Positions 1-26,747 are shown, counted from the stretch's first letter. The stretch is DNA of 64,000 nt from an uncultured Gammaproteobacteria bacterium (GCA_964465375.1 CAYXIJ010000001.1:60060-124059); one strand, 5' to 3'. The notes: generated from the letters alone by a model not told the origin. Program-made: numbers and translations.

Positions 1-1059
1 AGTCACATCTGCTTTCATGGGAAAACCACCCTGACCCAATACCAGCCGGGACCCATCCGCCTTATACACACCGTACCGATGTACGGTCCTTTGTGCATCC
101 TCTAATGCCATGGAATAACAGGCTGAGTCGGTGGTCAGGCCATCGCTCCCCGTAGGGGTATAGTCCGTCCTGGCGGGCGCGCCATCTGAGTCCATATTTT
201 CAAAATCAAGCTTGTAGGCTTTAATAAAATCCGTGCAGTACACCTTGTCGGTATCATTGAGGGCAAACTTCTGTACCAGCTGGATGGGACTTCCCGTCTG
301 TGTACTCTCATCCCAAATTCCAGTCATTTGGTTGTAAACGCCCGAGATGGTATTTCCACTAAAGCTCGCCTTGAGTCCTGAAGATGGGGCCATCATCATC
401 TCTTCCCTAAACACCACCTCATTTGCTGTGGCACTAAGGTAAGCGCCCCCAATGCTTGTTCCGGCAGGCATTGATGGTCCACCGGGCGGTGCGAAGGCCT
501 CCGCTAACGTGTAGCTCATTAGCATTTCAAATTCGCCAAACCGAGCCGTGGCCGATGGGGCCGCACTCTGGCTTCCCTTGACATAAATCAACATCGGTGG
601 AAAAGCCGAAGACATCTCGTCTTCGGGATCAGCTTCTTCGCCTGGAATATCAACCCAAACCTTTGCGATCATGGGGGAATTTTCATCCGCACGCGTCACC
701 TCAATGACAGATGATGTGACTTCCCTCTCTTCTCTATTAGCGCCCGATCCGCTCGAAGAGCCTGCATTGCTCGCCGTTTGTGCGGATGTTGGTTTAGCCG
801 CCGCCTGATCTGAAGCCGACATATCATCTTCGTCACATTCATCTTCATATATATTAGCTACGTACGCGCCCCGGTTGACCATTTTGTCTGGTGCCATCGC
901 ATTCATGTAGCAGATGAACCTATTGACCTGCGCGAGCGCGTCATTTGTTCCATTATCTGAAACATAAAAATTCACTGGATCGTCTTGGAATGCTGTTTGT
1001 GCGCATACTGACCCCGCTAAGAGGGAGAGCACGAACAGAAGTTGTCTGAAAGTTCTCAT
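1..1059 (-). CDS. secreted protein of unknown function (first 353 codons; gene continues past the left edge)
   Basis: Absent from the ORF track because no stop lies inside the window. My reverse-strand translation from ATG 1059..1057 (AGGAGA about 7 nt upstream) gives MRTFRQLLFVLSLLAGSVCAQTAFQDDP..., a Sec-type signal peptide followed by an Asp/Glu/Ser-rich segment. The frame stays open to position 1. It starts 17 nt after the stop of the upstream lipoprotein gene. Confidence 0.6.
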   Translation of the reverse strand, partial: MRTFRQLLFVLSLLAGSVCAQTAFQDDPVNFYVSDNGTNDALAQVNRFICYMNAMAPDKMVNRGAYVANIYEDECDEDDMSASDQAAAKPTSAQTASNAGSSSGSGANREEREVTSSVIEVTRADENSPMIAKVWVDIPGEEADPEDEMSSAFPPMLIYVKGSQSAAPSATARFGEFEMLMSYTLAEAFAPPGGPSMPAGTSIGGAYLSATANEVVFREEMMMAPSSGLKASFSGNTISGVYNQMTGIWDESTQTGSPIQLVQKFALNDTDKVYCTDFIKAYKLDFENMDSDGAPARTDYTPTGSDGLTTDSACYSMALEDAQRTVHRYGVYKADGSRLVLGQGGFPMKADVT

Positions 1060-1076
1060 AGTTGCTCTCCTATTCA

Positions 1077-1337
1077 TTATTGTGTCTCCACAAGATCAAT
1101 TTCGTTCGGCAGCGCAAGACCCGAAATTGAAGTATCAGGCGTAGGTGTAGGCGTAGGTGTAGGTGTAGGTGTAGGTGTAGGTACCGGTGTGGGTGTGGGT
1201 GTAGAACCACCACCGCCTCCGCCTCCGCCTCCGCCTCCGCAGGCACTGATCGCAAAAACGGCCAGCACTAATAGCAAGGCCCTCCCTTTTGAGAGCAAAG
1301 GTATCCCACCTACACTCAGTTGCACTCGTTTTAACAT
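1077..1337 (-). CDS. small lipoprotein with Gly11 and (Thr-Pro)n linker
   Basis: Track ORF 1077..1379. The best start is ATG 1337, with GGGAGA upstream. The product MLKRVQLSVGGIPLLSKGRALLLVLAVFAISAC has a lipobox (AISA|C). It continues with G11, S, (TP)3-VP-(TP)7 and a 19-aa tail DTSISGLALPNEIDLVETQ. Confidence 0.6.
   Translation of the reverse strand: MLKRVQLSVGGIPLLSKGRALLLVLAVFAISACGGGGGGGGGGGSTPTPTPVPTPTPTPTPTPTPTPDTSISGLALPNEIDLVETQ
1137..1238. repeat. in-frame hexanucleotide microsatellites inside the lipoprotein gene
   Basis: Plus strand shows ggcgta/ggtgta units repeated about 11 times (1137..1205, encoding the TP/VP repeats on the minus strand). This is followed by accaccaccg + (cctccg)x4 (1206..1238, encoding Gly11). 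Confidence 0.9.
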
Positions 1338-1634
1338 TTGATCCATCTCCCACCTCATAACTGATATTCTGCCTTTCAAAGCGACCAGCCAATCAAACAG
1401 ACTAATGTGAACTTAACCTCATGTGATAAGCGTACGCCATACTCGTGCTCTTTTTCCTAGGTCAATAAACTCGCCTACCCGGAAGGTATTCTATCTCGAG
1501 ATTGAAGGCTCTACAACGCGGAGAAAAAAAATATTTAATTCTTATAAATTAATCACTTAAATATAAATTATTTGTAGTTCACCGCGCCTTACTTATGGCT
1601 CGGTCACATGATTCCGCCGCTACGAAAATACTCC

Positions 1635-2552
1635 CTAAAAAAATCTAACCAAAAAATCGGCCATCCTTTTTATTGCTTGGGTCGCTTCAGGAAACATCTC
1701 TTCAAAATGCAAAAAACCGTGGGGCATACCTTCATAGTAGGACTCTTCGCACACTATGTTGGACTCCCTCAATTTCTGGGCCAAAGCCTTTGAGCTTGCC
1801 ATGAGTCCATCGTTGGTTCCGCAAAGTATATGGGTAGGTGGAAACTTCTCTGCCACGTGGATAGGGCTTACCCAAGGATGATGAAGGAGATCTCTGTTTC
1901 GGTCCGGTCCTAGATAGGAGCCAATCATCATTTCCGATATTAAATCAACGCCTCGAAATTCGGCCTGATCTCCTTCGGCGTCCGTTAGGCTGGCAAAGTC
2001 AACCACCGCATAAATCAGTAATATGCTTTGTATAGTCACCTTATCATCATCGGTCAGGGCTGCTGCTGCTGCTGCTGCCAAATTTCCACCGGCCGAATCT
2101 CCCCCCACAGACAACCTAGTAGGGTCTCCACCAAATTCATTGCAGTGCCCAAAAACCCATCGGATGGCTTCCATACAATCGTTAAAGCCTTCAGGAAAAG
2201 GGTTTTCCGGGGCCAGAGCATAATCTACATTAAAGACAAGATAACCAGCCTCTGCGAACCGGTGGCATATTTTTCTATGACTCTTGGGGCTACCGGCAAA
2301 CCACCCCCCACCATGGAAATAGATTAAAACGGGAAAAGGCCCCTCCCCTTGCGGGCTATGAATATCCGTACTTAGTACCCTGTTTCCTTTTTTTGCAATT
2401 TCTATCCCGCTACGGAAACCACCTATTACTGGAAGGTCATCATTTGCGCCCGCCGTATCCATACCCTCTTCCAGCATAGTCCTAAATTCATTGATATCTT
2501 TAGGTGACTTTCCCTCAAGGATGCTGGCCAGGGGGTCCCTTTTTTTATTCAT
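1635..2552 (-). CDS. alpha/beta hydrolase, family IV (hormone-sensitive-lipase-like) esterase/lipase
   Basis: 305 aa. Oxyanion-hole motif HGGGW (YFHGGGWFAG), nucleophile elbow GDSAGG, and a C-terminal catalytic-His context (GMPHGF). Confidence 0.85.
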   Translation of the reverse strand: MNKKRDPLASILEGKSPKDINEFRTMLEEGMDTAGANDDLPVIGGFRSGIEIAKKGNRVLSTDIHSPQGEGPFPVLIYFHGGGWFAGSPKSHRKICHRFAEAGYLVFNVDYALAPENPFPEGFNDCMEAIRWVFGHCNEFGGDPTRLSVGGDSAGGNLAAAAAAALTDDDKVTIQSILLIYAVVDFASLTDAEGDQAEFRGVDLISEMMIGSYLGPDRNRDLLHHPWVSPIHVAEKFPPTHILCGTNDGLMASSKALAQKLRESNIVCEESYYEGMPHGFLHFEEMFPEATQAIKRMADFLVRFF

Positions 2553-2555
2553 AAT

Positions 2556-3065
2556 TCAACCTAACTCGATTTGATGAATGATTTTCCACAGCTCAACCTC
2601 CTCATCAACCTTTACAAGCGAAACTTTTTTTAGGTAAGCCTTTCTTGGTACTTTAGGAAGCTGAGAGATAACAGAATTCTTCCTTGACTCCTGCTCTTCC
2701 CCATAAAACAAACTGATATGCGGAAAAAAATATCTCGACTCTAATGCAAACGTTTTTTCTAATGAACTTTTTAGTTCGGTGAGCTTTTCAGATTTTAATA
2801 CTTCTACAAACAACGACTGATAATATTTTTCCCTATAACCATAACTCATACACTGCACTTCTACCTCATAGAGTTGTTCTTTCAGGCTGAAAAAAAGATC
2901 CACTATGTTGCTGTCTATATTCTCCATTGGGCCTGCCAGGGTCAAATGAATATCGAAAGTCGGGCCTTGAAGAAAACGTCCCACCTGGGTTTTAAGTTCA
3001 GTCAGTTCCTGTGTCGAGGATTCGTCAAATTGACCCCAGAACCAATACCCTTTTGAGACTCTCAT
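2556..3065 (-). CDS. 2H phosphoesterase superfamily protein (LigT / cyclic phosphodiesterase-like)
   Basis: Two H-x-T/S motifs typical of the 2H fold (DIHLTLAG and PHISLFYG). The start is uncertain: the track ORF extends to 3101, and I prefer MRVSKGYWF at 3065. Its stop lies 3 nt from the esterase start. Confidence 0.6.
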   Translation of the reverse strand: MRVSKGYWFWGQFDESSTQELTELKTQVGRFLQGPTFDIHLTLAGPMENIDSNIVDLFFSLKEQLYEVEVQCMSYGYREKYYQSLFVEVLKSEKLTELKSSLEKTFALESRYFFPHISLFYGEEQESRKNSVISQLPKVPRKAYLKKVSLVKVDEEVELWKIIHQIELG

Positions 3066-3216
3066 TGCAGGCCTATATAAAACTTGCGGATAAACGACCA
3101 ACCCATTATGCGACGTCTCTGCAGTATGGGCTCGCGCTGTCGCAATCTTCGATGACTAGAGTGTATCCATAATGTAACCATCTCATCTAATAATTTTTTT
3201 AGTTCGATCGAATAAA

Positions 3217-4086
3217 TTATGGTTGCGCAGAAATTACCCAAGTCGCACAGGGACCCATTACGCCCTCAGGAGTATCAAATTCGCTAAGAGCTTTGCGGAT
3301 TGCTGTATCGATGGCTGCACGCTGGGCTTCACTGGCGCTTGCTATCTCTGCAACAGCCGGCCCCATTCGCATCATATAGGCCACGGCATCGTCCATTTTA
3401 CCGAGTGGCATTTTTTGGTCCACGCCCTCCAGTGAGATATTCTTAAACCCAGCTGATTTAAGTACCTCGTGAATCCAGTCAGGGTCTGCAAACGAGAAAG
3501 GCCCGGGTGCCCTGGGATCAGGTTTTTCGCCGGAACCCGACAGCAAAATCTCCTTAGCAGCAGCAACAGGTTGTGCTATCCAGGGGTTTTCAGGTGGTGC
3601 CCTCCAGCATAGTGCAACCAGACGCCCATCACTTTTTAGTGCCCGGTGAAAGTTTTTGAACGCTGATTTAGGTTCTTCAAAAAACATGACCCCAAAACAT
3701 GAAAAACAGAGGTCATATATATTTTCACCGAGATCCGCCGTGCCAGCATCCAATAAATCGAATCGCAAATTCTTCGGGGCAGGGCTAAGCTGCTCAGCTA
3801 AATCCAAAATCATTTTGGAAACATCTACACCTACGACACGGCCGGTTGCGCCGACTCTTTTTGTAACTTCTAGGGTGGTTTCGCCGGTACCACACCCAAT
3901 GTCGAGTACTGTTTCGCCCGCAGCCGGCGCAGCCCTCTGTATAAGTACCTCGCTTAGCGGGGCAAGTAGCGAGCGAGTACGCTCAACGTTCTCCGTCCAC
4001 ATCTTACCGCCCTCATTGTTCCAGAATTCTGCCTCCTGGGAGGGTAGGCTCTTGTTGTTGTTTTCTATTATTATTTTCTGGGTCAT
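3217..4086 (-). CDS. class I SAM-dependent methyltransferase
   Basis: SAM-binding motif I VLDIGCGTGE, followed by an acidic loop (GVDVS). The preferred start MTQKIII lies inside track ORF 3217..4140. Confidence 0.8.
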   Translation of the reverse strand: MTQKIIIENNNKSLPSQEAEFWNNEGGKMWTENVERTRSLLAPLSEVLIQRAAPAAGETVLDIGCGTGETTLEVTKRVGATGRVVGVDVSKMILDLAEQLSPAPKNLRFDLLDAGTADLGENIYDLCFSCFGVMFFEEPKSAFKNFHRALKSDGRLVALCWRAPPENPWIAQPVAAAKEILLSGSGEKPDPRAPGPFSFADPDWIHEVLKSAGFKNISLEGVDQKMPLGKMDDAVAYMMRMGPAVAEIASASEAQRAAIDTAIRKALSEFDTPEGVMGPCATWVISAQP

Positions 4087-4203
4087 AAAGGACTCCTGTG
4101 AGTTACCTGGAATTTTGCATGGAAAATAACAAGCTCCCAACTAACCGAAACACAAAAACTTTCGTACAAAAAAATTCAAACTGCACGTTCTGACCTGATT
4201 TAG

Positions 4204-5220
4204 TTATTTGTAGACGGGGCTGATGGTATCCCGCAGCGTGCACTCGAACGGTCTGACTTCGACGCCTGGCCTGTAGACCCAGGTGCCTTCCCAGATCGCG
4301 GGTTCCACCATGTTCTCTGAGTCCGTGACAACGATTTCATAATCGAGGCGGTTTTCATTCTTGCTCAATGTGTACCGCTCAACCATCGAGACGTTTTCGC
4401 TCATGGGTGTACCGTCAGCGTCGAGGAATGGGAAGGCGACCTGTGCCGTCTCGACGACAAGCGTATTCTCATCCCAACGACCGATCGAGTATCCAAGATA
4501 GCTCGGTGCTTGGGTCTGGATGCGCGCGTCTTCGCTCATGTGAAACACGCGCCGCGCATCCCACTCTTCAATCCGCTGAATAATTCGGTCGCCCTCGTCG
4601 ATGAACTCCATGGGATAGGGATTCAGAATGGCGTTGGGCATACCAGGCGGTATACATTTAAGGCTCGGGTCGTCGGTTCTCGGGTCAAAGGCGTCCCTCG
4701 ACGCCAGAGCCGCGGGTGTGAGCACGAGCGAACCGCGGGCCCGGTACAAATCGCGACTCCACACCTTGAAGATTCCGTTCCCGGCCACACCGGTCGTGCT
4801 GGCTAGTGTCATTTCATCGGCCGAGGGCAAAGTCCACCGCAGCGGAAGGTCGCGATCCGACAAGATCGCCTCCTCGCCGCTGGGTAAGAGCAAATGGGAG
4901 ACGAAGATGGCGGGTTCGCCTCGCCGGGATGCAGCCCCGGCCGCCTTCACTCGCTCGCCGATGGCTACGGATCCCGCGGTGAATCCCCGTCGTATCAGAG
5001 TGTTCGTCGTACCGCCCTCCAAGTCCCACTCTTCGGTCATGCCTGTATCATTTACCACCGCGAGCGTGAAGCTGACATGGGGATTTCTCCAGAAGATGTC
5101 GGTGATAGTTCCCTCAATCTCCACCGTGGTATTTCGATCGAAGAATGCCGTGACGGAATGGTGCGCTAGTGCCGGAGGAGAAAACACCAGAAATACCAAC
5201 GAAACGGCAATTAATCTCAT
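4204..5220 (-). CDS. secreted two-domain protein of unknown function (DUF6152-like N-domain fused to an uncharacterised C-domain), copy A
   Basis: Signal peptide MRLIAVSLVFLVFSPPALA|HH. N-domain: HHSVTAFFD...ITDIFWRNPHVSFTL. C-domain: LKCIPPGMPNAILNPYPMEF...GYSIGRWDENTLVVET...RPFECT. It is a paralog of 25692..26747 and of the split pair at 24432..25515. Confidence 0.75.
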   Translation of the reverse strand: MRLIAVSLVFLVFSPPALAHHSVTAFFDRNTTVEIEGTITDIFWRNPHVSFTLAVVNDTGMTEEWDLEGGTTNTLIRRGFTAGSVAIGERVKAAGAASRRGEPAIFVSHLLLPSGEEAILSDRDLPLRWTLPSADEMTLASTTGVAGNGIFKVWSRDLYRARGSLVLTPAALASRDAFDPRTDDPSLKCIPPGMPNAILNPYPMEFIDEGDRIIQRIEEWDARRVFHMSEDARIQTQAPSYLGYSIGRWDENTLVVETAQVAFPFLDADGTPMSENVSMVERYTLSKNENRLDYEIVVTDSENMVEPAIWEGTWVYRPGVEVRPFECTLRDTISPVYK

Positions 5221-5244
5221 GACTTCCTCTAATGGCTTGGTGCT

Positions 5245-6324
5245 TTACTCGCGATCCCAGTGCCGCATAATGGGTTGTTCGTTCGCTCGCATAGTGTTCA
5301 TATAGGCTTGTAGAAGTTCTCTACCGGGTAATCCTCTTCGTTCAATATCCGCCACCCAGGTGCTAGCCAGATCGGGCACGGAGGCGGCCCACTCACTCCG
5401 CTGTTCGTCAGACAGCGAAACTATTATTCCACCCAGAGCTTCAAAGGACTCTATTGATCTCGTACTTCTTCGGACGGTCTCCAGCGCCAACTCGTCCCGA
5501 TACACTTCCGCTGCCGTAAGTAATGCCCTGCGTACCTCATCGGGTAGCCGATCCCAGGTGTGTTCGTTTGCACTTATTGCAACGGAACTCACGGCACCAA
5601 GTCGTGCGTCGATAAGGTAGGGGGCGATCTCGTACAGCTTGAATGAGACAATAGCTTCGGGCCAGACGATCGCTCCATCGGTCAGACCTGTAGCGATATT
5701 GTTGTAGAAATCAGCCAAACTACTGCTTACTCCAACGGCACCCAGGCCTACGAAATACAACAGATTCATGCCCACTCCAGACATTCTGAGTCCACGAAAA
5801 TCTTCCAGAACTGTGATAGGTTGATTCATCAGAGCCTGGTACGTGTCCACTAGCCCAGCTGTGATGAGATAGACTTGACGGTAGTCGCTCCATAGCTTCT
5901 TCAGGTCCGGATATTGTTCATGCAGCTCGCTCACCGTACGCACCACAAGTCCCATGTCCGTCGTCACGAATGGAGTGACGTAGCTGAGATTGTAAAATGG
6001 AATTTTGTCCGAGTGGAATGATGTTGTGATGATTCCGATGTCCGCCAGACCATACTGAATAGCCTCAAAAGCACCGCCGGGCTTCGCCACGCTACCAAAT
6101 GGAGTATTCCAGTCGATCGCATAGATGCCCGTGACGGCAAGCTGACGATCCGTCTCAGGGATAAAGTGGGCAAGGAACGTCTCTATCCATAACGCAGTAG
6201 GCGGATAACCACTAACCACCGTTATCGGAATAATTTGCTGAGCCGTCGTGCCGGTGTTGCATAGTATCAATAGCAAGCACAGATTAGCCAAAGAGCGTGG
6301 GCAGCAACTGAGTTTCGATACCAT
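5245..6324 (-). CDS. DctP-family (TRAP-type) periplasmic solute-binding protein, orphan
   Basis: 359 aa with a hydrophobic N-terminus. The pattern resembles DctP proteins (AFEAIQYGLADIG, EDFRGLRMSG, ATGLTDGA, WDRLPDEVRRAL). No DctQ/DctM membrane genes are present in the window. Confidence 0.55.
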   Translation of the reverse strand: MVSKLSCCPRSLANLCLLLILCNTGTTAQQIIPITVVSGYPPTALWIETFLAHFIPETDRQLAVTGIYAIDWNTPFGSVAKPGGAFEAIQYGLADIGIITTSFHSDKIPFYNLSYVTPFVTTDMGLVVRTVSELHEQYPDLKKLWSDYRQVYLITAGLVDTYQALMNQPITVLEDFRGLRMSGVGMNLLYFVGLGAVGVSSSLADFYNNIATGLTDGAIVWPEAIVSFKLYEIAPYLIDARLGAVSSVAISANEHTWDRLPDEVRRALLTAAEVYRDELALETVRRSTRSIESFEALGGIIVSLSDEQRSEWAASVPDLASTWVADIERRGLPGRELLQAYMNTMRANEQPIMRHWDRE

Positions 6325-6344
6325 GCCTTAAGCATAGTACCCTA

Positions 6345-7526
6345 TTACTCCGTCGGTACGAGAGAGTAACGACCGTCGGCAGCCAGACATTCAGCTTCGG
6401 GCAGACCAAGCTCTCGCTTCACCATGTTCGCGCCCTGTACGAGCGATGCCATTTTGTAGCGGGCATGTCGACGGCTCATGCCCTCTCGTCCCATCCCACA
6501 GTCTGAGCAGAGAATTAGGCGCTCGGCCGGGATGTGCTGCAGTGTTTCTCGGATTCGCTCAGCAATCTCTGCTGGGCTCTCGATTTGCAGGGAATGATGA
6601 TCGATCATTCCGATAGCAATTTTCTTCTCGGTAATGATTTTACCGATAGCGGGGACGTCCCTCATGCCCGAACTGCACGATTCGAACGTAACAACATCCG
6701 CATCGACCTGATTGTAGAATTCCAGTGCTGGCTCGTAACTCTGGGCTTCTTTAAACATACGCTGTTGTGAGGGATTACCCCAGCATGTGTGACACCAGAC
6801 TTCGGTCTTATCGCGCAAACCTTTAGTCGTGTTATCAAAGACTTTTACCATATCGCCCATGTCGTGCTTACCGAAAACCTTCCCTCGCACAGGGATCATA
6901 TGAATTGAAGGCTCTTCGAGTTGGATGACCGGACAGCCGGCATCGGCGAGCTCATTTAACTCTTCGTTGAGCGCGTTACTTAGTGCCATGATTCGCTCAA
7001 AAGGGTCCTTATAGTGGGCGTCGTCTACGGCAGCAGCCAGGATATCCGGGGTCACTGTTCCAAATTTGACCGGTTTCGCCGTCAATCGCTGGGCTGTCTT
7101 CCACATCGCCGTGTACTGCAGGTCGCCCCGGCCGATGGGCCCGATGACCCTAGGCATAACTCGAGCTTCCAGATAATCATGGAGTATGTGACCCGGGGGA
7201 AAAGCAACGCCACCGGTCCGCATAATGGCAGGCTGAGGATTGTTCTTTTCAAAACCCTCCATGTGAAACAGTGGATAGCTTGTCCAACTCTGACCACCTA
7301 CCTCCTCGTCGTAATGGGCATCACCGTCCGTACAGATATCGAGGCCCGCAATTTCCTGATCCCGCAGGTGTACGGCGACCGCATCTGTGTATTGCTCACG
7401 ATAACGTGAGTTCATCATGGAACGAAGGAAAGTGTTCGAGCCGAGGTTTTCCGTAAACCAGCTTGGCCTAGGTAGCGAACCAATGATTGTCGTTGGAAGT
7501 GCAAGATTGGCGGTTGCTTTGAGCAT
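6345..7526 (-). CDS. cobalamin-independent methionine synthase (MetE C-terminal domain)-like Zn methyltransferase
   Basis: 393 aa. N-terminus LPTTIIGSLPRP. Putative Zn ligands are retained: H-x-C (CHTCWGNP), Glu (TFESCS) and Cys (LCSDCGMG). This is single-domain size, not full-length two-domain MetE. Confidence 0.75.
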   Translation of the reverse strand: MLKATANLALPTTIIGSLPRPSWFTENLGSNTFLRSMMNSRYREQYTDAVAVHLRDQEIAGLDICTDGDAHYDEEVGGQSWTSYPLFHMEGFEKNNPQPAIMRTGGVAFPPGHILHDYLEARVMPRVIGPIGRGDLQYTAMWKTAQRLTAKPVKFGTVTPDILAAAVDDAHYKDPFERIMALSNALNEELNELADAGCPVIQLEEPSIHMIPVRGKVFGKHDMGDMVKVFDNTTKGLRDKTEVWCHTCWGNPSQQRMFKEAQSYEPALEFYNQVDADVVTFESCSSGMRDVPAIGKIITEKKIAIGMIDHHSLQIESPAEIAERIRETLQHIPAERLILCSDCGMGREGMSRRHARYKMASLVQGANMVKRELGLPEAECLAADGRYSLVPTE

Positions 7527-7578
7527 CTTTTGAGGTCCTTACTTAAATTTTTAAAGATAATTTCTTATAACTTTACTT

Positions 7579-7625
7579 AGTTGCTTTGCGAATGATGGCA
7601 GATAAATTCTAAAGGACAAGCAACT
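7579..7625 (-). promoter_or_regulatory. stem-loop in the roughly 110-nt leader of the MetE-like operon (unclassified)
   Basis: The minus-strand leader contains AGUUGCUU ... AAGCAACU, an 8-bp stem with a loop of about 31 nt. A possible promoter lies upstream: TAGACT (7669..7664), 17 nt, then TGCAAT (7646..7641). No riboswitch class could be assigned by eye. Confidence 0.25.
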
Positions 7626-7777
7626 GACATTAAAACCACCATTGCATTTCCTAAATATAGTCAAGTCTACCGGCGCTTTGCTTTGTCCGGCCGATCTGTT
7701 GGTGCAGTGCATGCGGGCTGGGGAATGCGTGAACTCGATGAAGGCGGTCACATTTTCTCGGGAATACTGAGGAGTGC

Positions 7778-7868
7778 TGGCGGAGAGGGAGGGATTCGAA
7801 CCCCCGGACGGGAATTACCCGCCAACGGTTTTCAAGACCGCCGCATTCGACCACTCTGCCACCTCTCC
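7778..7868 (-). tRNA. tRNA-Ser (anticodon UGA)
   Basis: Reverse complement reads GGAGAGGTGGCAGAGTGGTCGAATGCGGCGGTCTTGAAAACCGTTGGCGGGTAATTCCCGTCCGGGGGTTCGAATCCCTCCCTCTCCGCCA. It has a 7-bp acceptor stem GGAGAGG/CCTCTCC, anticodon loop CT-TGA-AA, a long variable arm, a GGTTCGAATCC T-arm and an encoded CCA. Confidence 0.95.
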
Positions 7869-8103
7869 GGCGCCTGCATTCTCTCGAGGCCTCTCGCTCA
7901 GCGCAAGACCCTAGGACCAAAGACACCGAGGAACCCAAACTCATTATGACATTTCTCTACATAAAGGTAGGTGACGGGAGCAAAGGAAAATCAATATAGC
8001 GCACAGGCACAGCATTACTCGTCTAGGCATGTTGCTGATAAGTCGCTGATAGTAAACTCTGAAAGTACCAACATCTAACCACTAGCACGGTGCTATAAAT
8101 ATC

Positions 8104-8838
8104 ATGATTGATCTTAGTAATGAGACCGCTTTGGTAACCGGTGGGACTCGCAATATTGGATTATCCATTGCAAAAAACCTCAAAGCCGCCGGGGCCAAAG
8201 TAGGCATTATCGGAGGCTCTGATCCAGAGGTATTAGAAAAGGCAATAGAAACATTAAAAAGGGGGAATGGCGATGTTATGGGGATGCTAGCTAATGTCGC
8301 TGATGAGAAAGCTGTTATAGAGGCATACGACAAAATCGAGGCTGGACTTGGTCCCGTCTCAATTCTCGTCAATGGGGCAGCTAAACGCCCACATGAACCA
8401 CTAAAGGAGATTAGCCGTGAATCCTGGAATGCGGTTCTTGACGTCATACTCACGGGGGCTTTTTTTGCATCCCGAGAACTCTTCACTAGGCTGCCGCAGG
8501 AACGACAGGGGTCTGTTATCAATGTAGGTGGTCTCAGTGCTCACCGTCCCGCCAAAGATCGTGCTCACGTGATCTCGGCCAAAGCCGGACTGATTGGCCT
8601 AACACGGGCATTGGCTGAAGAGGGGTTAGGAAGGATTCGTGTCAACTGTGTCGTGCCTGGAGTGATCGACACGCAGCGCCTGCCAGACCAAAACCCACCC
8701 CAGTTCGACGAAGACTCAAAGTACGCTTCGGGTACACCCGAAGATGTAGCGCGCGCAGTGGTAACCTTTGCTGACCCGCGAGACGTCTATATCACAGGCC
8801 AAATACTGCATGTCAATGGCGGACGGTTGATGTCCTAG
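8104..8838 (+). CDS. short-chain dehydrogenase/reductase family protein (atypical active site)
   Basis: 244 aa with a Rossmann N-terminus (ALVTGGTRNIG) and FabG-like core (NGAA, SAKAGLIGLTRALA, VNCVVPG). The positions I align to the catalytic Ser and Tyr carry Gly and Val. Confidence 0.75.
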   Translation: MIDLSNETALVTGGTRNIGLSIAKNLKAAGAKVGIIGGSDPEVLEKAIETLKRGNGDVMGMLANVADEKAVIEAYDKIEAGLGPVSILVNGAAKRPHEPLKEISRESWNAVLDVILTGAFFASRELFTRLPQERQGSVINVGGLSAHRPAKDRAHVISAKAGLIGLTRALAEEGLGRIRVNCVVPGVIDTQRLPDQNPPQFDEDSKYASGTPEDVARAVVTFADPRDVYITGQILHVNGGRLMS

Positions 8839-8881
8839 ATCAAGCAAAAAAGATGGGCCAAGAATAAGGGTTACCTAAGAA

Positions 8882-10183
<1,302 letters not shown>

Positions 10184-10230
10184 CTAGAGGAACAAACTTA
10201 AGTTCGCAGATGGGTTATAAAAATATTTAG

Positions 10231-10623
10231 TCAAGAGCTGGAATTTGCCTCTAGAAAAAATCTCTCAAAACGCTGGCACCAAGCAATAAATACACTTCGT
10301 GCAAGTATCAGGCCCAAGAGAATTCCCACTGCATTGGCCAGCAAATCAAAGGAATCAAAGCCCCGATAAGGCAACTGGCCCTGTATCACCTCCAGAACTA
10401 AGCCCATGGCAAACAACGCTAGCGCAATAAAGATATGATACTGACGCTGATAAAGACCCGAAAACCAAGTTATCAGGATTAAATATGAACCTCCGTGTAC
10501 CAATTTATCGGCCGCTGAAAAACCTTTAACCACGATAACGGGTATTACACTACCCGCCATAACTAAAATCAGTAGTAGCCAGCCTAAGCCCAACCAAATC
10601 CGAGGATACTTAAGTGGCAACAA
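10231..10623 (-). CDS. VanZ-like family membrane protein
   Basis: 130 aa with about 4 TM segments. It carries DKLVHGGSY and EVIQ...R.FD..DLLANAVG patterns typical of VanZ-like proteins. Confidence 0.6.
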   Translation of the reverse strand: MLPLKYPRIWLGLGWLLLILVMAGSVIPVIVVKGFSAADKLVHGGSYLILITWFSGLYQRQYHIFIALALFAMGLVLEVIQGQLPYRGFDSFDLLANAVGILLGLILARSVFIAWCQRFERFFLEANSSS

Positions 10624-10628
10624 TGGAA

Positions 10629-11339
10629 CTACTCGATACTGCCAATGACGTCCACACCATCAGGAGCAGTAAATTCAAACGCACTATCTTCTATCCCTGG
10701 GTTTAGCTCCACATTGGAAAACTCAATTTGCGTAATTTGACTGAGCCCATCAATTAGCTCTAACCGCTCGGGGATGCTATCACGGAATCCAATTAGCAAA
10801 GCATTAAAATCTGCGTCCTCCGTGACGGGCCCAAGCCTTGCCCAATTCACCCCGCTCGCCTCAAAATAATCCAGCACCTCAAAGCTCTCTCGTGCTGCAC
10901 TATCCCCACTCAACAACATAGCGGGAGTCGCTGAAATCGCATTACCCAAAGGGGTAACAGTCGCCTGCGCTAACTCAATGTCATAAATCCACAAGCTTTG
11001 CCCGTCTGACAAAATTAATTGCTCAATCGGTGAAGAATAGCTCCAAAGAAAACGATTGGGTCTCCTTATCAAAACCTTGCCAGTGGCAGTCTCCACAAGC
11101 TGATTGTCTACATTCCAAAGCTGCTGACTAAAGTCGGCCGTCATGCTTTCCATGTTCCTTAAAAAAAAATCAAGCGGATGATCTTCAGTACCTGCGCTCC
11201 CGTCTAATAACTCTTGAGCAACAGCGAAACTGAGGAAATCAACTACCTCAATACACAGAAATAGCCCCGAAAAAGACAGCGCCAAGCTGGCCGAAAAACC
11301 TCCACGTCTAATCTTATTCTCATTGGCACGAAGAAACAT
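10629..11339 (-). CDS. lolA: outer-membrane lipoprotein carrier protein LolA
   Basis: LolA-like sequence (FSQQLWNVDNQLVETATGKVLIRRPNRFLWSYSSP...QSLWIYD) in the conserved position downstream of ftsK. The start is trimmed to MFLRAN inside track ORF 10629..11390. Confidence 0.85.
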   Translation of the reverse strand: MFLRANENKIRRGGFSASLALSFSGLFLCIEVVDFLSFAVAQELLDGSAGTEDHPLDFFLRNMESMTADFSQQLWNVDNQLVETATGKVLIRRPNRFLWSYSSPIEQLILSDGQSLWIYDIELAQATVTPLGNAISATPAMLLSGDSAARESFEVLDYFEASGVNWARLGPVTEDADFNALLIGFRDSIPERLELIDGLSQITQIEFSNVELNPGIEDSAFEFTAPDGVDVIGSIE

Positions 11340-11343
11340 TCGC

Positions 11344-13641
11344 CTAATCATTATCCGGCGGTGGTGGCGCAAGTACTTCCCTGGAGCCATTAGGTTGCAA
11401 GCTACTCACGATTCCGGCGCTTTCCATGGTTTCCACCATTCTCGCAGCTCGGTTGTAGCCAATCTTTAAGCGACGTTGAACACCAGAAATAGAAGCCCTT
11501 CGGGTCTCCGTCACCACTTGAACCGCCTGGTCATAAAGTGGGTCCTGCTCTCCATCGACCCCATCAGTGCTAATCGATTCAAGACCAGGGGTCTCACCTG
11601 GAGGGCCCTCCAGTACTTCAGGTATGAATGAGGGTGTACCGACGGCCTTCAGAGATTTGACCACTGCATGCACTTCGTTATCCGACACAAACGCTCCATG
11701 AATGCGTGTAGGCATTGCGGTACCAGGAGGAAGGAACAACATATCGCCATGGCCCAGTAATTGTTCCGCGCCCATCTGATCTAGAATCGTTCGAGAATCC
11801 ACCTTAGCAGATACCTGAAAAGCAATACGGCAAGGTATATTCGCCTTAATTAGGCCTGTAATTACATCAACCGACGGACGTTGAGTGGCAATGATCATAT
11901 GGATCCCTGAGGCTCGGGCCTTTTGCGCAAGTCGAGCAATCAATTCCTCCACTTTTTTTCCTACCATCATCATCATATCGGCAAGCTCATCTATGATTAC
12001 AACCACATAGGGTAATGGCTGCAGAGAGGGTGCCGCTTCTTCCGAATCATCATCAGCTTGGAATATAGGATCTGGAATTGGCCGACCCTTTGCAATCGCG
12101 TCATTGACCTTTCGGTTATAGCTTGAAATATGTCTTACGCCCATCGCGGCCATAAGAGAGTAACGTCGCTCCATCTCGGCCACACACCAGCGCAAAGAGT
12201 TGGCTGCTTGCTTCATATCTGTAACCACAGGCGCCAAGAGGTGAGGAATGCCTTCGTAGACAGAAAGCTCCAGCATCTTCGGATCAATCATAATAAGTCT
12301 TATGTGCTCTGGTGAGGATTTGTAGAGCAAACTTAAAACCATGGCATTGAGTGCTACAGATTTACCTGAGCCGGTGGTACCAGCAATCAAAAGATGTGGC
12401 ATTCTGGCAAGATCAGCAACCATTGGTTGGCCGCCAATATCCTTACCTAAGGCTAGAGTAAGCGGCGAACTTAGATCATCATAGACACGAGACTTGATTA
12501 TCTCGCCCAGGGCTACCAATTCGCGTACTTCATTGGGTATCTCAAGGCCCACGAAGGGCTTGCCAGCAATAACCTCTACAACCCGGACGCTCACAGTGGA
12601 AAGTGAGCGCGCCAAATCTTTAGACAGATTACTGATCTGACTAACCTTAACACCAGCAGCGGGCTTGATCTCGAAGCGAGTGACTACAGGACCCGGATGC
12701 ACAGCGACAACCTCCGCTTCAATTCCAAAATCCCCTAACTTTAGCTCCACCAATCGGGACATTGCTTGCAGAGCGTCATCAGAATATCCACCCTCTGCCG
12801 GTGGTGGGTCATCCAGTAATGATAAGGGGGGCAGCTCTGAAGATTTCGGTGGCTCGAACAATGGTACCTGTCGCTCGCGCTCCAGCCGGACACTGGATTC
12901 TACTTTTTCAAATAGTGGCTCGATCCGCGGTGAGGTAACTTTAGTTCTAGAAAGTTTTTTACTTATTACTGTTTGTCGCTGTTGCTTTGCGCGGCGTCCC
13001 TCAATCCAAGCTAGAAATCGACTAAACCACGTCTGCCCGAAACTGAAAGCAACAAATACTGCGTGACCAATGCGATCCATTGCTGAGATCCACGAGATGC
13101 CAGTAGTTAAGGAAACCGAAACTAACCAGCAGACAACCAAAAGAACCGTCGCGCCCAATAGTCCAAGCACACGCTCAAGCCCTTCTCCCACCCATTGCCC
13201 AACAATACCTCCTGAGGTTTCATACATTTCTGGAGAAATAAAATGCAAAGTTGCTAAACCACAGCTAGTTGCCATGATAAGAACAAACCCAGAAATCTTT
13301 ACTGCAATGCCTACCCAGTTAAATTTGGGGTCCTGCTTATTACGATCACGGAAAAGTAAAATACCAAAAAGAAAAGAGAGGGCAGGAAAAAGATATGCAG
13401 GCCGACCAAAAAATAAATAAGCCAAATCTGCGAACCAAGCACCCGCGGGCCCCATGCGATTGGCAACCTCATCACTGCCCCCAGCAACACTGAATGCTGA
13501 ATCCGAGACGTTATAGCTGGCGAGCGCTACAAATAACATAATGCTCAGACCCACAAGTAACCATAGCGCAGACTCCCTCAGCCCCCGAATTCGGGGCACA
13601 AAAAAGGCTCTGGCCATACTACTGGGCTTCACAATGCTCAC
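11344..13641 (-). CDS. ftsK: DNA translocase FtsK
   Basis: 765 aa. N-terminal TM segments, a Pro-rich linker, the motor domain with Walker A GTTGSGKS, and a gamma winged-helix domain ([20 protein letters not shown]). Confidence 0.95.
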
Positions 13642-13758
13642 ATTTTACGATAATAAATATGGTTAAGATACTGATTAAATAGAAAACCCAATTCCCAAAA
13701 ACTCAGAAACCCTGATAGCACTCTAGTGGCTGGGGTACGATCTTGGCATAGTATAGGC

Positions 13759-14928
13759 ATGATCCCAGGACTTCGACTGAATCAGCATAATAGCATTCTT
13801 GAATTGGATGCTCTGTCCTGGAATCAGCTGGCGGGAGATTCACCCTTTTTACGCCATGAGTTCCTTGCGGCCCTAGAAAAAACAGGTTGCGTAGACGGAG
13901 AAACCGCTTGGCAATCTAGACATCTAACGGTTACAGACCACACGAATAAACTTCTGGGGGCATTACCTTTATACATAAAATACAATTCACTCGGAGAATA
14001 TGTATTTGATTGGAGCTGGGCTGATTCTTATGACGCTACAGGCCTACCCTATTATCCGAAACTGGTATCTGCAGTTCCTTTTACGCCGGCGACTGGGCGC
14101 CGGTTTTTGGTCGCGCCTGAATTAGATTTCTCAGGTGTGGTGCCAGTACTTTTAAGTGGTGCGCGTGAACTTGCAGATGAATTGAGCGCCTCCTCCCTTC
14201 ACATTCTTTTTCCTACTGAGCACGAACAGTCCTACCTAGATAGCAAAGGTATAATGACCCGCAAAGGCTGCCAATTTCACTGGCATAACCACAATTACAG
14301 TCATTTTGATGATTTTCTCAGCTGTTTCACTTCATCAAAAAGAAAAAAAGTTAAGAGAGAGCGCAAAAGAATAACTGAAGCGGGCATCCAATTTGAGCAC
14401 ATGTACGGTAACCAGATCAGCGCAGGTGACTGGGAGACAATTTTCAGTTTTTACGCCAGAACATTTTATCGTAGAGGGCACGCTCCATACCTTAATCATG
14501 CTTTTTTTGCCGAAATAGCGAGAACAATGCCAGAAAACCTTCTAATCATTCTCGCGCGCTATGGCGGGCATCCAATTGCAGCGGCAATCTGTTTCCGTAA
14601 TCAGCACACTCTTTACGGGAGATATTGGGGATGCCTAGCTGATTTCCATAGCCTTCACTTCGAGTGTTGCTACTACCAAGGCATCAAGTATTGTATTGAA
14701 GAAAAAATTCAGATATTTGAACCTGGAACCCAAGGTGAACACAAAATAAGCCGTGGCTTCATACCTACCGCTACTTGGTCTAATCACTGGATCACAAACC
14801 AAGAGTTTGGTGATGCAGTTGCAGATTTTTTACGTCGTGAGCGTCTACACATAGATGCCTACATGGAGGAAACCGCTAACCACACACCCTATCGGAATGA
14901 TCTATCCCCTTCCTTGTCACCTCGATGA
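13759..14928 (+). CDS. FemAB-like/GNAT-fold protein (DUF482 family)
   Basis: About 390 aa. N-terminus ...WNQLAGDSPFLRHEFLAALEKTGC and ...FEPGTQGEHKISRGF match my memory of the DUF482 'peptidoglycan biosynthesis/recognition' family. It overlaps aat by 4 nt. The start is uncertain (13726 or 13759). Confidence 0.6.
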   Translation: MIPGLRLNQHNSILELDALSWNQLAGDSPFLRHEFLAALEKTGCVDGETAWQSRHLTVTDHTNKLLGALPLYIKYNSLGEYVFDWSWADSYDATGLPYYPKLVSAVPFTPATGRRFLVAPELDFSGVVPVLLSGARELADELSASSLHILFPTEHEQSYLDSKGIMTRKGCQFHWHNHNYSHFDDFLSCFTSSKRKKVKRERKRITEAGIQFEHMYGNQISAGDWETIFSFYARTFYRRGHAPYLNHAFFAEIARTMPENLLIILARYGGHPIAAAICFRNQHTLYGRYWGCLADFHSLHFECCYYQGIKYCIEEKIQIFEPGTQGEHKISRGFIPTATWSNHWITNQEFGDAVADFLRRERLHIDAYMEETANHTPYRNDLSPSLSPR

Positions 14929-15974: not shown

Positions 15975-16042
15975 AAGCCGTGGGGTAAGGTGAACTATTA
16001 ATTTCTAGATAAAGTTCACACATTTTAAAAATCTAATTTAGT

Positions 16043-24431: not shown

Positions 24432-24848
24432 CTACTCACCCGCTCGCCTAAATCCAGCACCTCCACCCGAAAATATAGCAATGTCTCCGTTGTGAAATTC
24501 GACTCGCGACAAACGCATAAAGTTTGGCTCAGTTAGACCGGGTGCTCCTACAACTAGTTTTAATTTGTCTCCGGGGCGGAGCACCTCATTCCCTACACCC
24601 GAACGCCTCAAGTTGTTGGCACTTGCAAGTTCCGCACTCCATTCCACTTCGCTACCACCATCATCTGTAACGAGGTAGGTGAGCCTCCCATGAGGATTAA
24701 ACAATTTATAATCCACAACCGTAACGTTTTCATGTTGCAACTCAACATTGAGGTCGAAATAAACACCTCCATTATGATGTGCTGTTGCGGAAAAACCAGC
24801 AAGCGATATTAAAATCACTAAAGATAGGTATGCACCAAGATATCTCAT
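24432..24848 (-). CDS. secreted DUF6152-like protein (stand-alone N-domain), copy C
   Basis: The start is trimmed to MRYLGAYLSLVILISLAGFSATA|HHNGGVYFD inside track ORF 24432..24944. The pattern ..LFNPHGRLTYL..EW..RRSG..GDKLKLV.. matches the N-domains of 4204..5220 and 25692..26747. Confidence 0.7.
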   Translation of the reverse strand: MRYLGAYLSLVILISLAGFSATAHHNGGVYFDLNVELQHENVTVVDYKLFNPHGRLTYLVTDDGGSEVEWSAELASANNLRRSGVGNEVLRPGDKLKLVVGAPGLTEPNFMRLSRVEFHNGDIAIFSGGGAGFRRAGE

Positions 24849-24867
24849 AGCTTTCGTGTCTCCATTC

Positions 24868-25515
24868 TTAACCGAGACCTCCAAATTCCGGGATACACTC
24901 ATACTCCCAAATTTCACCATCCGGCGCAAAAACCCAACGCCCATTTACGACATACGGCTCCTCGTAATAACGCGAGTCATGCACTTCCCCCGTAAAGGTT
25001 AGTATGTCCCCGTCACGGTTATACCGTTCCAGTACATAGGCCGACTCATCACCTGAAAAAGGAAAGCCGGCTGTCCAGACATAATTATCCGGTGACATAT
25101 GAGTAGTTTTAATTACTAAAGTTTCGCCTTCCCAATGACCCGTCGAGTAACCAATAAGCGATGGCAACCAATGATCGGGCGCTTGTCGACCATCCATAAA
25201 AATACGACGTACCTGATGAAAATGCTCATAGAGAATCAAAATTTGATGGTTCTGTTGTACAATTTCTATTGGGTATGGATCTACCAAACCCAAGGGGATT
25301 CCAGGCATCAGACACCGTAGAGTGGGATCCTTGTCCGCACCAAAATCCTCAAATTCAGCTTGCCCCTCCGGGGTAAGTTTGACATCGCTTGGCGAAGGCT
25401 GTCCCATACGCCGTGGATGTTGCGCGTTCCAAATTCCTTGAAAATCAGCCTGAGCAAAAGCCGTTCCGGCAATCGATATCGCCAGAAAAGCCATGTAGAT
25501 TCTATTGATGCGCAT
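24868..25515 (-). CDS. secreted protein of unknown function (stand-alone C-domain), copy D
   Basis: Start MRINRIYMAFLAISIAGTAFAQ|ADFQGIW, with GGGAG 5-6 nt upstream. The segments LRCLMPGIPLGLVDPYPIEI...GYSTGHWEGETLVIKT...EYECIP align to the C-terminal halves of the fused paralogs. It lies 19 nt upstream of copy C. Confidence 0.7.
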   Translation of the reverse strand: MRINRIYMAFLAISIAGTAFAQADFQGIWNAQHPRRMGQPSPSDVKLTPEGQAEFEDFGADKDPTLRCLMPGIPLGLVDPYPIEIVQQNHQILILYEHFHQVRRIFMDGRQAPDHWLPSLIGYSTGHWEGETLVIKTTHMSPDNYVWTAGFPFSGDESAYVLERYNRDGDILTFTGEVHDSRYYEEPYVVNGRWVFAPDGEIWEYECIPEFGGLG

Positions 25516-25691
25516 TTTTTCTCCCATAACTGCAAGGACCGCAATCCCTCATCTTGCATCTTAACGATAATTCAAGCATAGAAACCAGAGCTAGAGAGAA
25601 TATATATAATATATCTATGCTGTGATTCTTTGGGGTGTGGCTACAAGAAATAATGAGCACCCGCGAACGCTTGAGCAATGAGGTGAATAAT

Positions 25692-26747
25692 ATGCGCGCC
25701 CAAAAAATAAGTGTATTAGCAATACTGGGGATTCTACCGACGATGTTGTCAGCCCACCATAACGTTGGAGCAAACTTTGATCCGAGCATTACAAAGGAAC
25801 TCGAAGGTGAAATCACTGACATACTCTGGCGAAACCCACATATAGCCTTCACTCTCGGGGTTACAGGCAGCACTGGCGAGCAAACCGAGTGGAATATAGA
25901 AACCCACTCTCTGAGCATTATGCGCCGGATGGACGTCACCGAACCGTTTGTTGAAATTGGGGATACGGTAAAGGTAGCTGGCTGGCTGGCACGACGTGGC
26001 CAAGGAATGTTTGCCAACAATATGCTTCTTCCTGGTGGAGAGGAATTCGTCTTTACTTTCTCCCCAAAACCTGCAGATCTTCGTTGGTCGGATCGGTTAT
26101 GGGGAACCAACGAACGGTGGTTTGCAGAAAATGGCAATACATCGGCATCGGAGCGTGGCATTTACCGGGTCTGGAGTACCACATTTTCTGCCGAAGCACA
26201 GGCCGTACCTAGTGAGGCTGAACGCACTGGATTCTTGCTCCTGCGAGACTACCCGCTCACGACTGAAGCGCGCGCAGTACAAAAAGCGTTTAACCCAGTA
26301 ATAGATGATCCGCTCCTTAACTGCGGACTGAAGGGTATGCCTGGGATTATGAATAATCCATATCCCATGGAATTTGTGGATCGCGGGGACACAATTGAGC
26401 TGCGCATGGAAGAGTACGACACCGTCCGAATAATCCATATGAATGACCAATCCGCTCCAGAGCCGGAACCCTCGATCTATGGCTATTCTACGGGATACTG
26501 GAATGATGAAACCTTAGTTGTACAAACATCACATAACAACTGGGGGCATTTTCAAGGCAGAGGCATACGAACCAGTAGTGCTATCAGCTTCGTAGAGCAA
26601 TTTACACCTACACAAGATGGAAGCAGGCTTGAGTATCAATTAATAGTTACTGATCCAGCTACATTTACCGAACCGGTGGAACTTAAAAAGGCCTGGGTCT
26701 GGCTACCCGATGTTACGGTTGAGCCGTACAACTGTATAGCAGATTAA
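25692..26747 (+). CDS. secreted two-domain protein of unknown function (DUF6152-like N-domain fused to an uncharacterised C-domain), copy B
   Basis: Start MRAQKISVLAILGILPTMLSA|HHNVGANFD, with GAGGTG 8 nt upstream. It aligns with copy A along its whole length by eye (ITDILWRNPHIAFTL; LNCGLKGMPGIMNNPYPMEF; GYSTGYWNDETLVVQT; EPYNC). Confidence 0.75.
   Translation: MRAQKISVLAILGILPTMLSAHHNVGANFDPSITKELEGEITDILWRNPHIAFTLGVTGSTGEQTEWNIETHSLSIMRRMDVTEPFVEIGDTVKVAGWLARRGQGMFANNMLLPGGEEFVFTFSPKPADLRWSDRLWGTNERWFAENGNTSASERGIYRVWSTTFSAEAQAVPSEAERTGFLLLRDYPLTTEARAVQKAFNPVIDDPLLNCGLKGMPGIMNNPYPMEFVDRGDTIELRMEEYDTVRIIHMNDQSAPEPEPSIYGYSTGYWNDETLVVQTSHNNWGHFQGRGIRTSSAISFVEQFTPTQDGSRLEYQLIVTDPATFTEPVELKKAWVWLPDVTVEPYNCIAD

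Follow-up and report, generated by a model that had tools for sequence, protein, structure and literature searches.

A 64,000-nt stretch of DNA from an uncultured Gammaproteobacteria bacterium (GCA_964465375.1, CAYXIJ010000001.1:60060-124059; hereafter the window) contains a string of three minus-strand open reading frames (ORFs) encoding a MetE-like zinc enzyme, a DctP-family solute-binding protein (SBP) and a DUF6152 fusion protein, copy A, here called DUF-A. The three genes are separated by gaps of only 20 nt (6325-6344) and 24 nt, exactly as given in an earlier note on this DNA, which had proposed that they form one operon. A tRNA-Ser(UGA) gene, which that note did not mention, lies in the same orientation 250 nt upstream of the MetE-like gene. 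The coordinates of these features are collected in Table 1, together with the homology blocks that the window shares with related loci, which were fetched and are labelled with L-numbers.

Table 1 Features of the window around the three-gene string, with the closest matches among the fetched loci.
Feature	Position	Strand	Description or basis	Closest match (identity)
MetE-like single-barrel Zn enzyme	6345..7526	-	393 aa; PF01717; first cassette gene	
DctP-family solute-binding protein	5245..6324	-	359 aa; PF03480; signal peptide; second cassette gene	
DUF6152 fusion protein copy A (DUF-A)	4204..5220	-	338 aa; PF19649; signal peptide	
metE-like/dctP-like cassette, homology block	5232..7588	-	2.36 kb; from ~60 nt of 5' flank to 13 nt past the dctP stop	L099 6730-9093 (90%); L007 5506-7312 (91.5% nt)
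DUF-A module, homology block	4210..5231	-	ORF plus 11-17 nt with its own ribosome-binding site	L091 7990-9014 (85.7%); L107 247-1274 (90.8% nt)
Spacer with module junction 5231/5232	5221..5244	-	24 nt	
tRNA-Ser(UGA)	7778..7868	-	ARAGORN and Rfam	
Spacer from tRNA-Ser 3' end to cassette	7589..7777	-	189 nt; window only	
tRNA-Ser and short-chain dehydrogenase/reductase (SDR) gene, homology block	7778-8387			L099 (85%)
S-adenosylmethionine (SAM)-dependent methyltransferase, LigT-like 2H phosphoesterase, HSL-family esterase	1635..4140	-	Pfam and NCBIfam	
Esterase, LigT-like and SAM-methyltransferase genes, homology block	344-4129			L007 (87-92%)
Two other DUF6152 systems	24432..26747	split pair -, fused copy +	tblastn; PF19649 in both N-domains	

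Comparison with the related loci divided the string into two blocks. Homology of the metE-like/dctP-like cassette to L099 stops at position 5232, and homology of DUF-A to L091, a GC-rich contig (58% GC), begins at position 5231, which indicates that the 24-nt spacer between dctP and the DUF-A gene is the junction of two independently derived pieces. The spacer consists of 13 nt of the cassette 3' flank followed by the ribosome-binding site (RBS) of DUF-A, TAGRGGRAGTC, which is identical upstream of the L091 ortholog. Compared with both L099 and L007, the cassette of the window is inverted relative to its flanks.

Base composition also sets the string apart. The 3.3-kb string has a GC content of 53.7%, against 47.0% in the rest of the window, and ranks first among 607 equal-sized windows; the 60-67% GC that the earlier note had counted in individual 60-nt lines was reproduced, and the windowed profiles of GC and of GC at third codon positions (GC3) bore out its impression of a GC-richer block. 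The GC3 values of the MetE-like, DctP-like and DUF-A genes are 0.56, 0.54 and 0.684, respectively, against a window mean of 0.44 (s.d. 0.06). The cassette keeps a GC3 of ~0.57 in hosts in which the neighbouring genes have values of 0.30 (the his genes of L099), 0.44 (the window) and 0.58 (L020), and this stability supports its horizontal acquisition. Orthologs of DUF-A have a GC3 of 0.71-0.77 and lie in contigs of 57-61% GC, indicating that the donor of DUF-A differs from that of the cassette. The horizontal origin suggested earlier for the whole block is thereby supported by its foreign composition and sharpened to two modules with different relatives. The synonymous divergence (dS) of the cassette is similar to that of the flanking genes, a similarity suggesting that the cassette was already present before the window lineage and L007 diverged. 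Purifying selection acts on each of the three genes, which have ratios of nonsynonymous to synonymous divergence (dN/dS) of 0.04-0.20 against their relatives and are therefore functional.

The two modules also differ in how they are conserved. The MetE-like gene followed by the DctP-like gene, 20-75 nt apart, was found in L007, L020 (Woeseiaceae), L099, L100, L101, L103, L104 and L108, and the cassette is kept intact in at least eight related contigs, with homology that runs from 30-85 nt before the metE-like ATG to just past the dctP stop. The surrounding sequence varies among most of these contigs; the flanks of L107 and L108 are those of L007. The order metE-like, dctP, DUF was found in the window only, among ~100 related loci. 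No DUF gene follows dctP in the cassette loci that are readable past dctP (L020, L099, L100 and L108), and L099 has none before the metE-like gene either. In L107, an ortholog 91% identical to DUF-A precedes the MetE-like gene, so that the order of the window is circularly permuted there, and L007 is 98.6% identical to L107 in nucleotide sequence, minus exactly 1087 nt that hold only the DUF-A ORF. A single inversion of the L107-type order does not yield the order of the window; the three genes being circularly permuted, getting from one arrangement to the other takes two or more events, or else an intermediate that is circular or duplicated. The neighbourhood survey thus spoke against the trio as a conserved pathway, as only the MetE-like/DctP-like pair is conserved and DUF-A was joined to it at 5231/5232 and deleted in L007. 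The earlier note had also remarked that it did not recognise a pathway combining a cytoplasmic methyltransferase with two exported proteins. This combination is more plausibly a pair of binding protein and enzyme, which is an undescribed variant of known families, with a juxtaposed DUF6152 protein from a very abundant exported family.

In two relatives, L108 and L099, the 13-nt cassette flank seen in the window runs straight on into the tRNA-Ser 3' end, and the breakpoint in the window lies within 1-3 nt of this boundary; the site in L108 is free of any island, and L099 carries a 7.3-kb integrase island in tRNA-Ser(UGA) (9093-16441), bounded by the 17-nt direct repeat TAATGGCGGAGAGGGAG. This island encodes a P4-type integrase, a MORN-repeat protein and primase-like and other phage-like proteins, and a second repeat of 26 nt is found nearby. 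The position at a tRNA 3' end, the foreign base composition and the presence of the L099 island at the same tRNA recall P4-type tRNA-linked islands, but the integrase and tRNA-3'-end direct repeats of a tRNA-integrated island were not seen in the window: Pfam found no integrase and no mobility genes among the genes flanking the string, and no direct repeats of the tRNA-Ser 3' end are present in positions 1-9000. In L099, the integrase and repeats bound a different element, and the cassette lies outside it. The cassette is thus cargo beside a hotspot and not a demonstrable island. Two candidate features were rejected. The purine-rich sequence TTAGAGGAAGTC in the 24-nt spacer resembles the core of the L099 attachment (att) site and was considered as an att remnant, but the same TAGRGGRAGTC in L091 identifies it as the RBS of DUF-A. 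A 97-aa ORF over the tRNA-Ser gene (7651-7944) belongs to no family, has extreme codon usage and is spurious.

The three genes lie on one strand with short gaps, and no terminator-like sites are predicted between 4204 and 7526, as would be expected of an operon. DUF-A is thus probably co-transcribed with the cassette in the window, judging from the arrangement of the genes. The proposal of a three-gene operon stands in this respect, but among the loci surveyed the order of all three was seen nowhere else, the pair alone being conserved in at least eight contigs and L107 having the permuted order. Any promoter of the string would lie in the 189-nt spacer or in the adjoining conserved 60 nt. Neither blastn nor tblastx matched the spacer to any of the fetched loci, and it contains no strong match to the sigma-70 consensus. 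A permissive Rfam search upstream of the MetE-like gene found no riboswitch and returned only the tRNA and one spurious match (Plastid-psbl-rps4 at 7781-7833, on the strand opposite the tRNA, with 40.5 bits against a gathering score of 68). When the regions upstream of the MetE-like genes of 10 loci were compared for a shared regulatory motif, conservation was confined to the three closest relatives.

The MetE-like protein matches Pfam PF01717 (Meth_synt_2) at 97.5 bits and has no signal peptide. Its CHTC (C245-H246-T247-C248), FES (E282) and DCG (C343) motifs, in which putative zinc ligands had been recognised earlier, do align with the zinc ligands of MetE and of the MesD structure 3RPD, and H246, C248, E282 and C343 are invariant in 25 family members; the protein thus carries the His-x-Cys, Glu and Cys ligands of the MetE superfamily. 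Ser17, also invariant in the family, matches the Ser that binds the carboxylate of homocysteine, and the positions that bind its amino group are occupied by Asp69 and Glu204, a swap relative to the Glu and Asp found there in MetE and MesD. A canonical MetE has ~750 aa in two tandem barrels, with an N-terminal folate-binding domain, whereas the protein of the window has 393 aa, scores 85 bits against the cutoff of 930 for TIGR01371 (canonical MetE) and reaches only 16.9 bits with Meth_synt_1, under the cutoff of 27. All NCBIfam equivalog models of methionine synthases score far under their cutoffs, the best being NF003317 (146.6 against 406 bits). Membership of MesD is defined by the NF006589 cutoff of 392 bits or by at least 390 bits to ACIAD3523 (PMC7857596), and the score with NF006589 is 136.6 bits. 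At 30% identity to MesD of Acinetobacter and Agrobacterium and 32% to EtnE, an epoxyalkane:coenzyme M transferase of the type that the earlier note had named, the protein is roughly equidistant from both. Homologs at 67-97% identity were found in 80 genome loci, from gamma-, alpha- and betaproteobacterial metagenome-assembled genomes (MAGs) and one Terriglobia MAG. Judged from these alignments, the protein is a member of an uncharacterised, very conserved clade of the MetE superfamily and not a canonical methionine synthase; literature searches on MetE-like proteins with TRAP (tripartite ATP-independent periplasmic) transporters or PF01717 found nothing on this clade.

Among characterised relatives, MesD (Shewanella, PDB 3RPD; Acinetobacter ACIAD3523), which works with MesX/DUF1852, shares with the MetE-like protein a single (beta-alpha)8 barrel of the MetE type, the four zinc ligands, the homocysteine-carboxylate Ser and the lack of a folate-binding barrel. 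The two differ in overall sequence and in the Asp69/Glu204 swap, the MesD-specific insertion with Tyr226 is absent, and the partner of the MetE-like gene encodes a periplasmic binding protein whereas that of MesD encodes an oxygenase. Genuine MesD-MesX pairs were fetched as a comparison set, and tblastn found no match to MesX in the window at E ≤ 1. We also surveyed 128 neighbours of MetE-like genes in 81 loci, which fall into 103 families. The 25 commonest families, those listed, include neither MesX/DUF1852 nor a corrinoid/B12-binding protein, Meth_synt_1, alkene monooxygenase or coenzyme M (CoM) biosynthesis genes; Pfam and NCBIfam likewise detected no corrinoid/B12-binding family in the genes flanking the string and no alkene monooxygenase or CoM-biosynthesis genes in the window. 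The neighbours are enriched in uptake components (Peripla_BP_6, 8; DctP, at least 4; TctC, 2; and EamA). MesA, MesB and MesC take methyl groups from corrinoids in an anaerobic Wood-Ljungdahl or methanogen context, and the score with NF003317 places the protein outside them. EtnE and XecA are single-barrel zinc-dependent thiol alkyltransferases of the same superfamily as the MetE-like protein; they have its HTCWGN motif and, behind the DG motif, an insertion as well, and EtnE gave the highest pairwise score with it among annotated plasmid proteins. They differ in overall sequence, in the residues for the thiol substrate and in genetic context. The MetE fusion of Phaeocystis has a different architecture.

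Several observations concern the wider surroundings of the MetE-like genes. In Woeseiaceae, L005 and L016 (4244-9185) contain a second MetE-like paralog, 41% identical, beside a TonB-dependent receptor, and in the Terriglobia locus L082 (3761-4810) extra MetE-like paralogs of 25-40% identity are interleaved with genes that encode only the C-domain of the DUF6152 proteins. These paralogs suggest a wider family of MetE-like enzymes tied to exported binding proteins. A family of 470-490 aa without a Pfam match (N-terminal ...AESTFG..A.NDGK...RLRNG..IT) recurs beside MetE-like/DctP modules, after dctP and before a gene resembling methylenetetrahydrofolate reductase (MTHFR) in L105 (983-3342) and, in the alphaproteobacterial L071 (8083-9528) and L080 (1501-2976), with metK on one side and the MetE-like gene on the other; it may provide a link to one-carbon or methionine metabolism. 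In L020 (8039-12291), a gamma-glutamyltranspeptidase gene directly precedes the MetE-like/DctP pair on the same strand, with a TonB-dependent receptor upstream, which hints at thiol or glutathione-derived substrates.

The second cassette gene encodes a DctP-type SBP of TRAP transporters by family and export signal: it matches PF03480 at 89.4 bits (cutoff 23.4), and its N-terminal hydrophobic leader ends ...TTA|QQ. In fold, signal peptide and length (~330-360 aa) the protein resembles SiaP, TarP (7NRR and 7NSW) and TeaA (2VPN), and more distant members of its subfamily are, like these, encoded with DctQ and DctM. It differs from them at the ligand clamp, where Ser183 aligns with the Arg of the K-x-R motif in 7NRR, 2PFY, 4MCO and 4P56. 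The carboxylate-clamping Arg, Arg147 in SiaP, is absent from all 34 aligned subfamily members, which have Ser, Cys, Ala, Gly or Tyr instead. This Arg is kept in 96.8% of DctP SBPs (PMC4646407), so that the subfamily belongs to the ~3% Arg-less minority. The known Arg-less SBPs, among them Csal_0678 and Tp0957, bind non-carboxylates, such as ethanolamine in Csal_0678, or have hydrophobic pockets (PMC4646407); by this precedent, the ligand of the DctP-like protein is probably a non-carboxylate. As stated earlier, the gene has no DctQ or DctM partner within the window: none is adjacent, and tblastn found none encoded in the 64-kb window. Homologs with at least 70% identity likewise have no DctQ/M gene beside them, whereas those at 58-61% identity have adjacent DctQ and DctM genes. 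More distant members, of 27-32% identity, come after MetE-like genes in three loci from Alphaproteobacteria, L025, L071 and L080. In L025 and L080 the gene next after the Arg-less DctP encodes a fused DctQM, and in L071 a separate DctM-like gene lies ~3.7 kb downstream.

DUF-A matches PF19649 at 74.6 bits (cutoff 27) over residues 13-102 of 338, and its C-terminal 190 aa match no Pfam family. An AlphaFold2 (AF2) model with a predicted local distance difference test score (pLDDT) of 84 gave fold matches in the PDB to oligonucleotide/oligosaccharide-binding (OB) folds and to barrels of the fatty-acid-binding protein (FABP)/lipocalin type; the protein is accordingly modelled as an OB-fold N-domain that starts at His20-His21 and is followed by a lipocalin/FABP-like C-domain barrel. 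Six residues are invariant, namely H20 and H21 at the mature N-terminus, H48, E68, C189 and C327, and the His-His pair with His48 and Glu68 suggests a metal site in DUF6152 proteins. A sequence search of the PDB returned no meaningful match, and a literature search for 'DUF6152' found no papers. That DUF-A is one of three paralogs, as the earlier note had it, holds for the window, which also encodes a fused copy (25692..26747, plus strand; 38% identical) and a split pair (24432..25527) composed of a C-domain gene (24868..25527) and an N-domain gene (24432..24848), both on the minus strand. These paralogs are 31-38% identical to copy A by tblastn and have a host-like GC3 of 0.37-0.46. In the split pair the C-domain gene comes first, opposite to the domain order of the fused proteins.

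DUF6152 proteins in these genomes are fused to or paired with a lipocalin-like partner of ~190-290 aa that has no Pfam match. The family is dense in these marine Gammaproteobacteria, with three systems in the 64-kb window and 2-4 per 17-kb locus, and its genes often lie beside those for pyrroloquinoline quinone (PQQ)/GSDH dehydrogenases, beta-propellers and esterases (in loci including L087-L094 and L009-L012). Orthologs of DUF-A itself, at 69-83% identity, are found amid PQQ/GSDH dehydrogenases, propeller proteins and other DUF6152 copies, and those in L091-L094 have no MetE-like or DctP neighbour. A palindromic intergenic element resembling repetitive extragenic palindromic (REP) sequences (...GTTAACGGTTAAT...CCGTCGGTTAACGGTTAAT) flanks the DUF-A gene in relatives and recurs between genes of unrelated contigs; it lies at 115-191 in L107 and at 5288-5351 in L007, and L091 and L100 have four copies each. 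It is absent from the window.

Taken together, these data make it probable, in our judgement, that the string arose recently as a mosaic, from two modules that were acquired horizontally and lie head-to-tail beside a tRNA-Ser hotspot, the first an import and thiol-alkyl-transfer cassette and the second a dispensable DUF-A. The first module (5232-7588) would be a conserved, self-contained cassette that combines a cytoplasmic zinc-dependent thiol S-alkyl(methyl)transferase with a periplasmic, Arg-less DctP protein. The latter would capture an exogenous, probably non-carboxylate small molecule and pass it to a TRAP membrane unit, which we infer to be encoded elsewhere in this lineage and which is adjacent in the alphaproteobacterial versions. 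In the cytoplasm, the zinc-activated thiolate of a homocysteine-like aminothiol would accept the alkyl or methyl group that the imported compound donates, unless that compound is itself the thiol; the enzyme would work without a folate-binding barrel, a MesX partner or a corrinoid-protein partner. The second module (4210-5231) would be an exported member of the DUF6152 family, with OB-fold and lipocalin-like domains, that was donated by a genome richer in GC and that the cassette can do without. DUF-A would be on the cassette transcript by accident, a rearrangement at the hotspot having left its RBS 13 nt after the dctP stop.

Several points weigh against the two-module reading. No promoter was located; in the promoter scan, as in that for terminators, no signal exceeded what shuffled sequence gives. 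The MetE-like protein yielded an AF2 model (pLDDT 51.6) too poor for a fold search or a check of the pocket, and the exchange of Glu for Asp and of Asp for Glu at the amino-binding positions could point to a substrate other than homocysteine. The DctP-like protein might act in sensing rather than transport, the absence of a DctQM partner being known for the 64 kb only. Finally, DUF-A adjoins the cassette in two arrangements, in the window and in L107, and a DUF6152 or C-domain gene is the immediate neighbour of a MetE-like gene in L010, L011, L012, L014 and, from Terriglobia, L082; these adjacencies could reflect a real functional link and not chance.

It is on this last point that the strongest competing explanation builds, a true three-component unit in which the DctP-like and DUF6152 proteins act on the same substrate in the periplasm, whether in its capture, in its presentation or in metal delivery, with the MetE-like enzyme completing the pathway in the cytoplasm and the gene order free to permute because only linkage is selected. 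Besides the two arrangements, it can draw on the same-strand orientation of the DUF6152/C-domain genes that flank MetE-like genes in L010, L011, L012 and L014, on the three C-domain genes upstream of the MetE-like gene in L082, and on orphan DctP homologs in L087 and L088 (79-83% identity) with DUF6152 genes within 1-6 kb. We nevertheless consider a three-component unit unlikely. In L007 precisely the DUF-A ORF is gone and the cassette remains, at 98.6% nucleotide identity; in four loci the dctP gene of the cassette has no DUF gene behind it, the DUF-A orthologs of L091-L094 stand apart from MetE-like and DctP genes, and the modules differ in composition and closest relatives. Moreover, DUF6152 genes are so dense in these genomes that adjacency as often as observed comes close to chance, and an enrichment over chance is not demonstrable.

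A bolder proposal, to which we give somewhat less credence than to the three-component unit, is that the cassette is a mobile import-and-transfer module representing a fifth family of folate-independent methionine synthases, and that the recurrent DUF6152 neighbours, with their invariant N-terminal His-His/His/Glu site, are periplasmic partners of a new kind that handle metals or ligands. If this were true, the methyl group would come directly from an imported non-carboxylate donor, such as a quaternary ammonium compound, a sulfonium compound or some other small molecule with methyl groups, and neither folate nor corrinoid proteins nor MesX would supply it.

It is quite improbable, in our view, that the enzyme simply has a housekeeping role as a methionine synthase that needs no folate, like core-MetE or MesD, and that its neighbours are irrelevant. 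Such a role would fit the conserved zinc site and homocysteine-carboxylate Ser, the acidic residues kept at the amino-binding positions, the very low dN/dS of the gene (0.04-0.06), the presence of metK 2 kb away in L071 and L080 and the MTHFR-like gene after dctP in L105. However, scores of 137-147 bits against cutoffs of 392-406 for the closest equivalog models, the missing MesD insertion and the absence of MesX/DUF1852 from the window, and of MesX/DUF1852, corrinoid proteins and Meth_synt_1 from the commonest neighbour families, argue against it, and a gene that travels with a binding protein, between changing flanks, with a foreign GC3 and beside an integration hotspot does not behave like a core biosynthetic gene. 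Highly improbable, finally, is a detoxifying or catabolic alkyltransferase of the epoxyalkane:CoM transferase type, which would transfer a small thiol onto an epoxide or alkyl halide while the Arg-less binding protein and the lipocalin-like protein handle a hydrophobic substrate: EtnE of Nocardioides JS614, its identity confirmed by its position upstream of alkene monooxygenase genes, is the top match among 72,556 plasmids (143 bits), it has the HTCWGN zinc motif and the insertion after the DG motif in common with the MetE-like protein where MesD does not, and an Arg-less SBP and a lipocalin fold suit non-polar ligands, but EtnE is only 32% identical, has Asn and Lys at the positions of Ser17 and Asp69, and its alkene monooxygenase and CoM-biosynthesis context is missing from the window and from the 25 listed neighbour families.

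How methionine is made without folate or B12 is under active study: the four core families were not defined until 2021, and the ecology of B12 in the sea depends on which organisms can bypass MetH. The MetE-like clade, with its extreme conservation, its horizontal mobility and its repeated link to uptake proteins, is a candidate for another such route, and the pairing with uptake proteins itself suggests where its substrate comes from. The cassette also gives a biological context to the rare Arg-less DctP proteins, whose ligands are mostly unknown. The window further provides a caution, in that a tight three-gene 'operon' can be a fresh product of recombination at a tRNA hotspot, so that spacing alone is no basis for inferring a pathway.

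Downstream of the string, the genes at 1635..4140 are co-directional with it, the SAM-methyltransferase gene having its probable start at 4086. This block has a host-like composition (GC3 0.40-0.46) and is syntenic with L007 1-3680 at 87-92% nucleotide identity. Positions 1125-1234 contain a tandem array of 12-nt units with a 6-nt sub-period (GGTGTA/GGCGTA), followed by CCGCCT repeats, and this array sits inside overlapping ORFs at 1042-1392.

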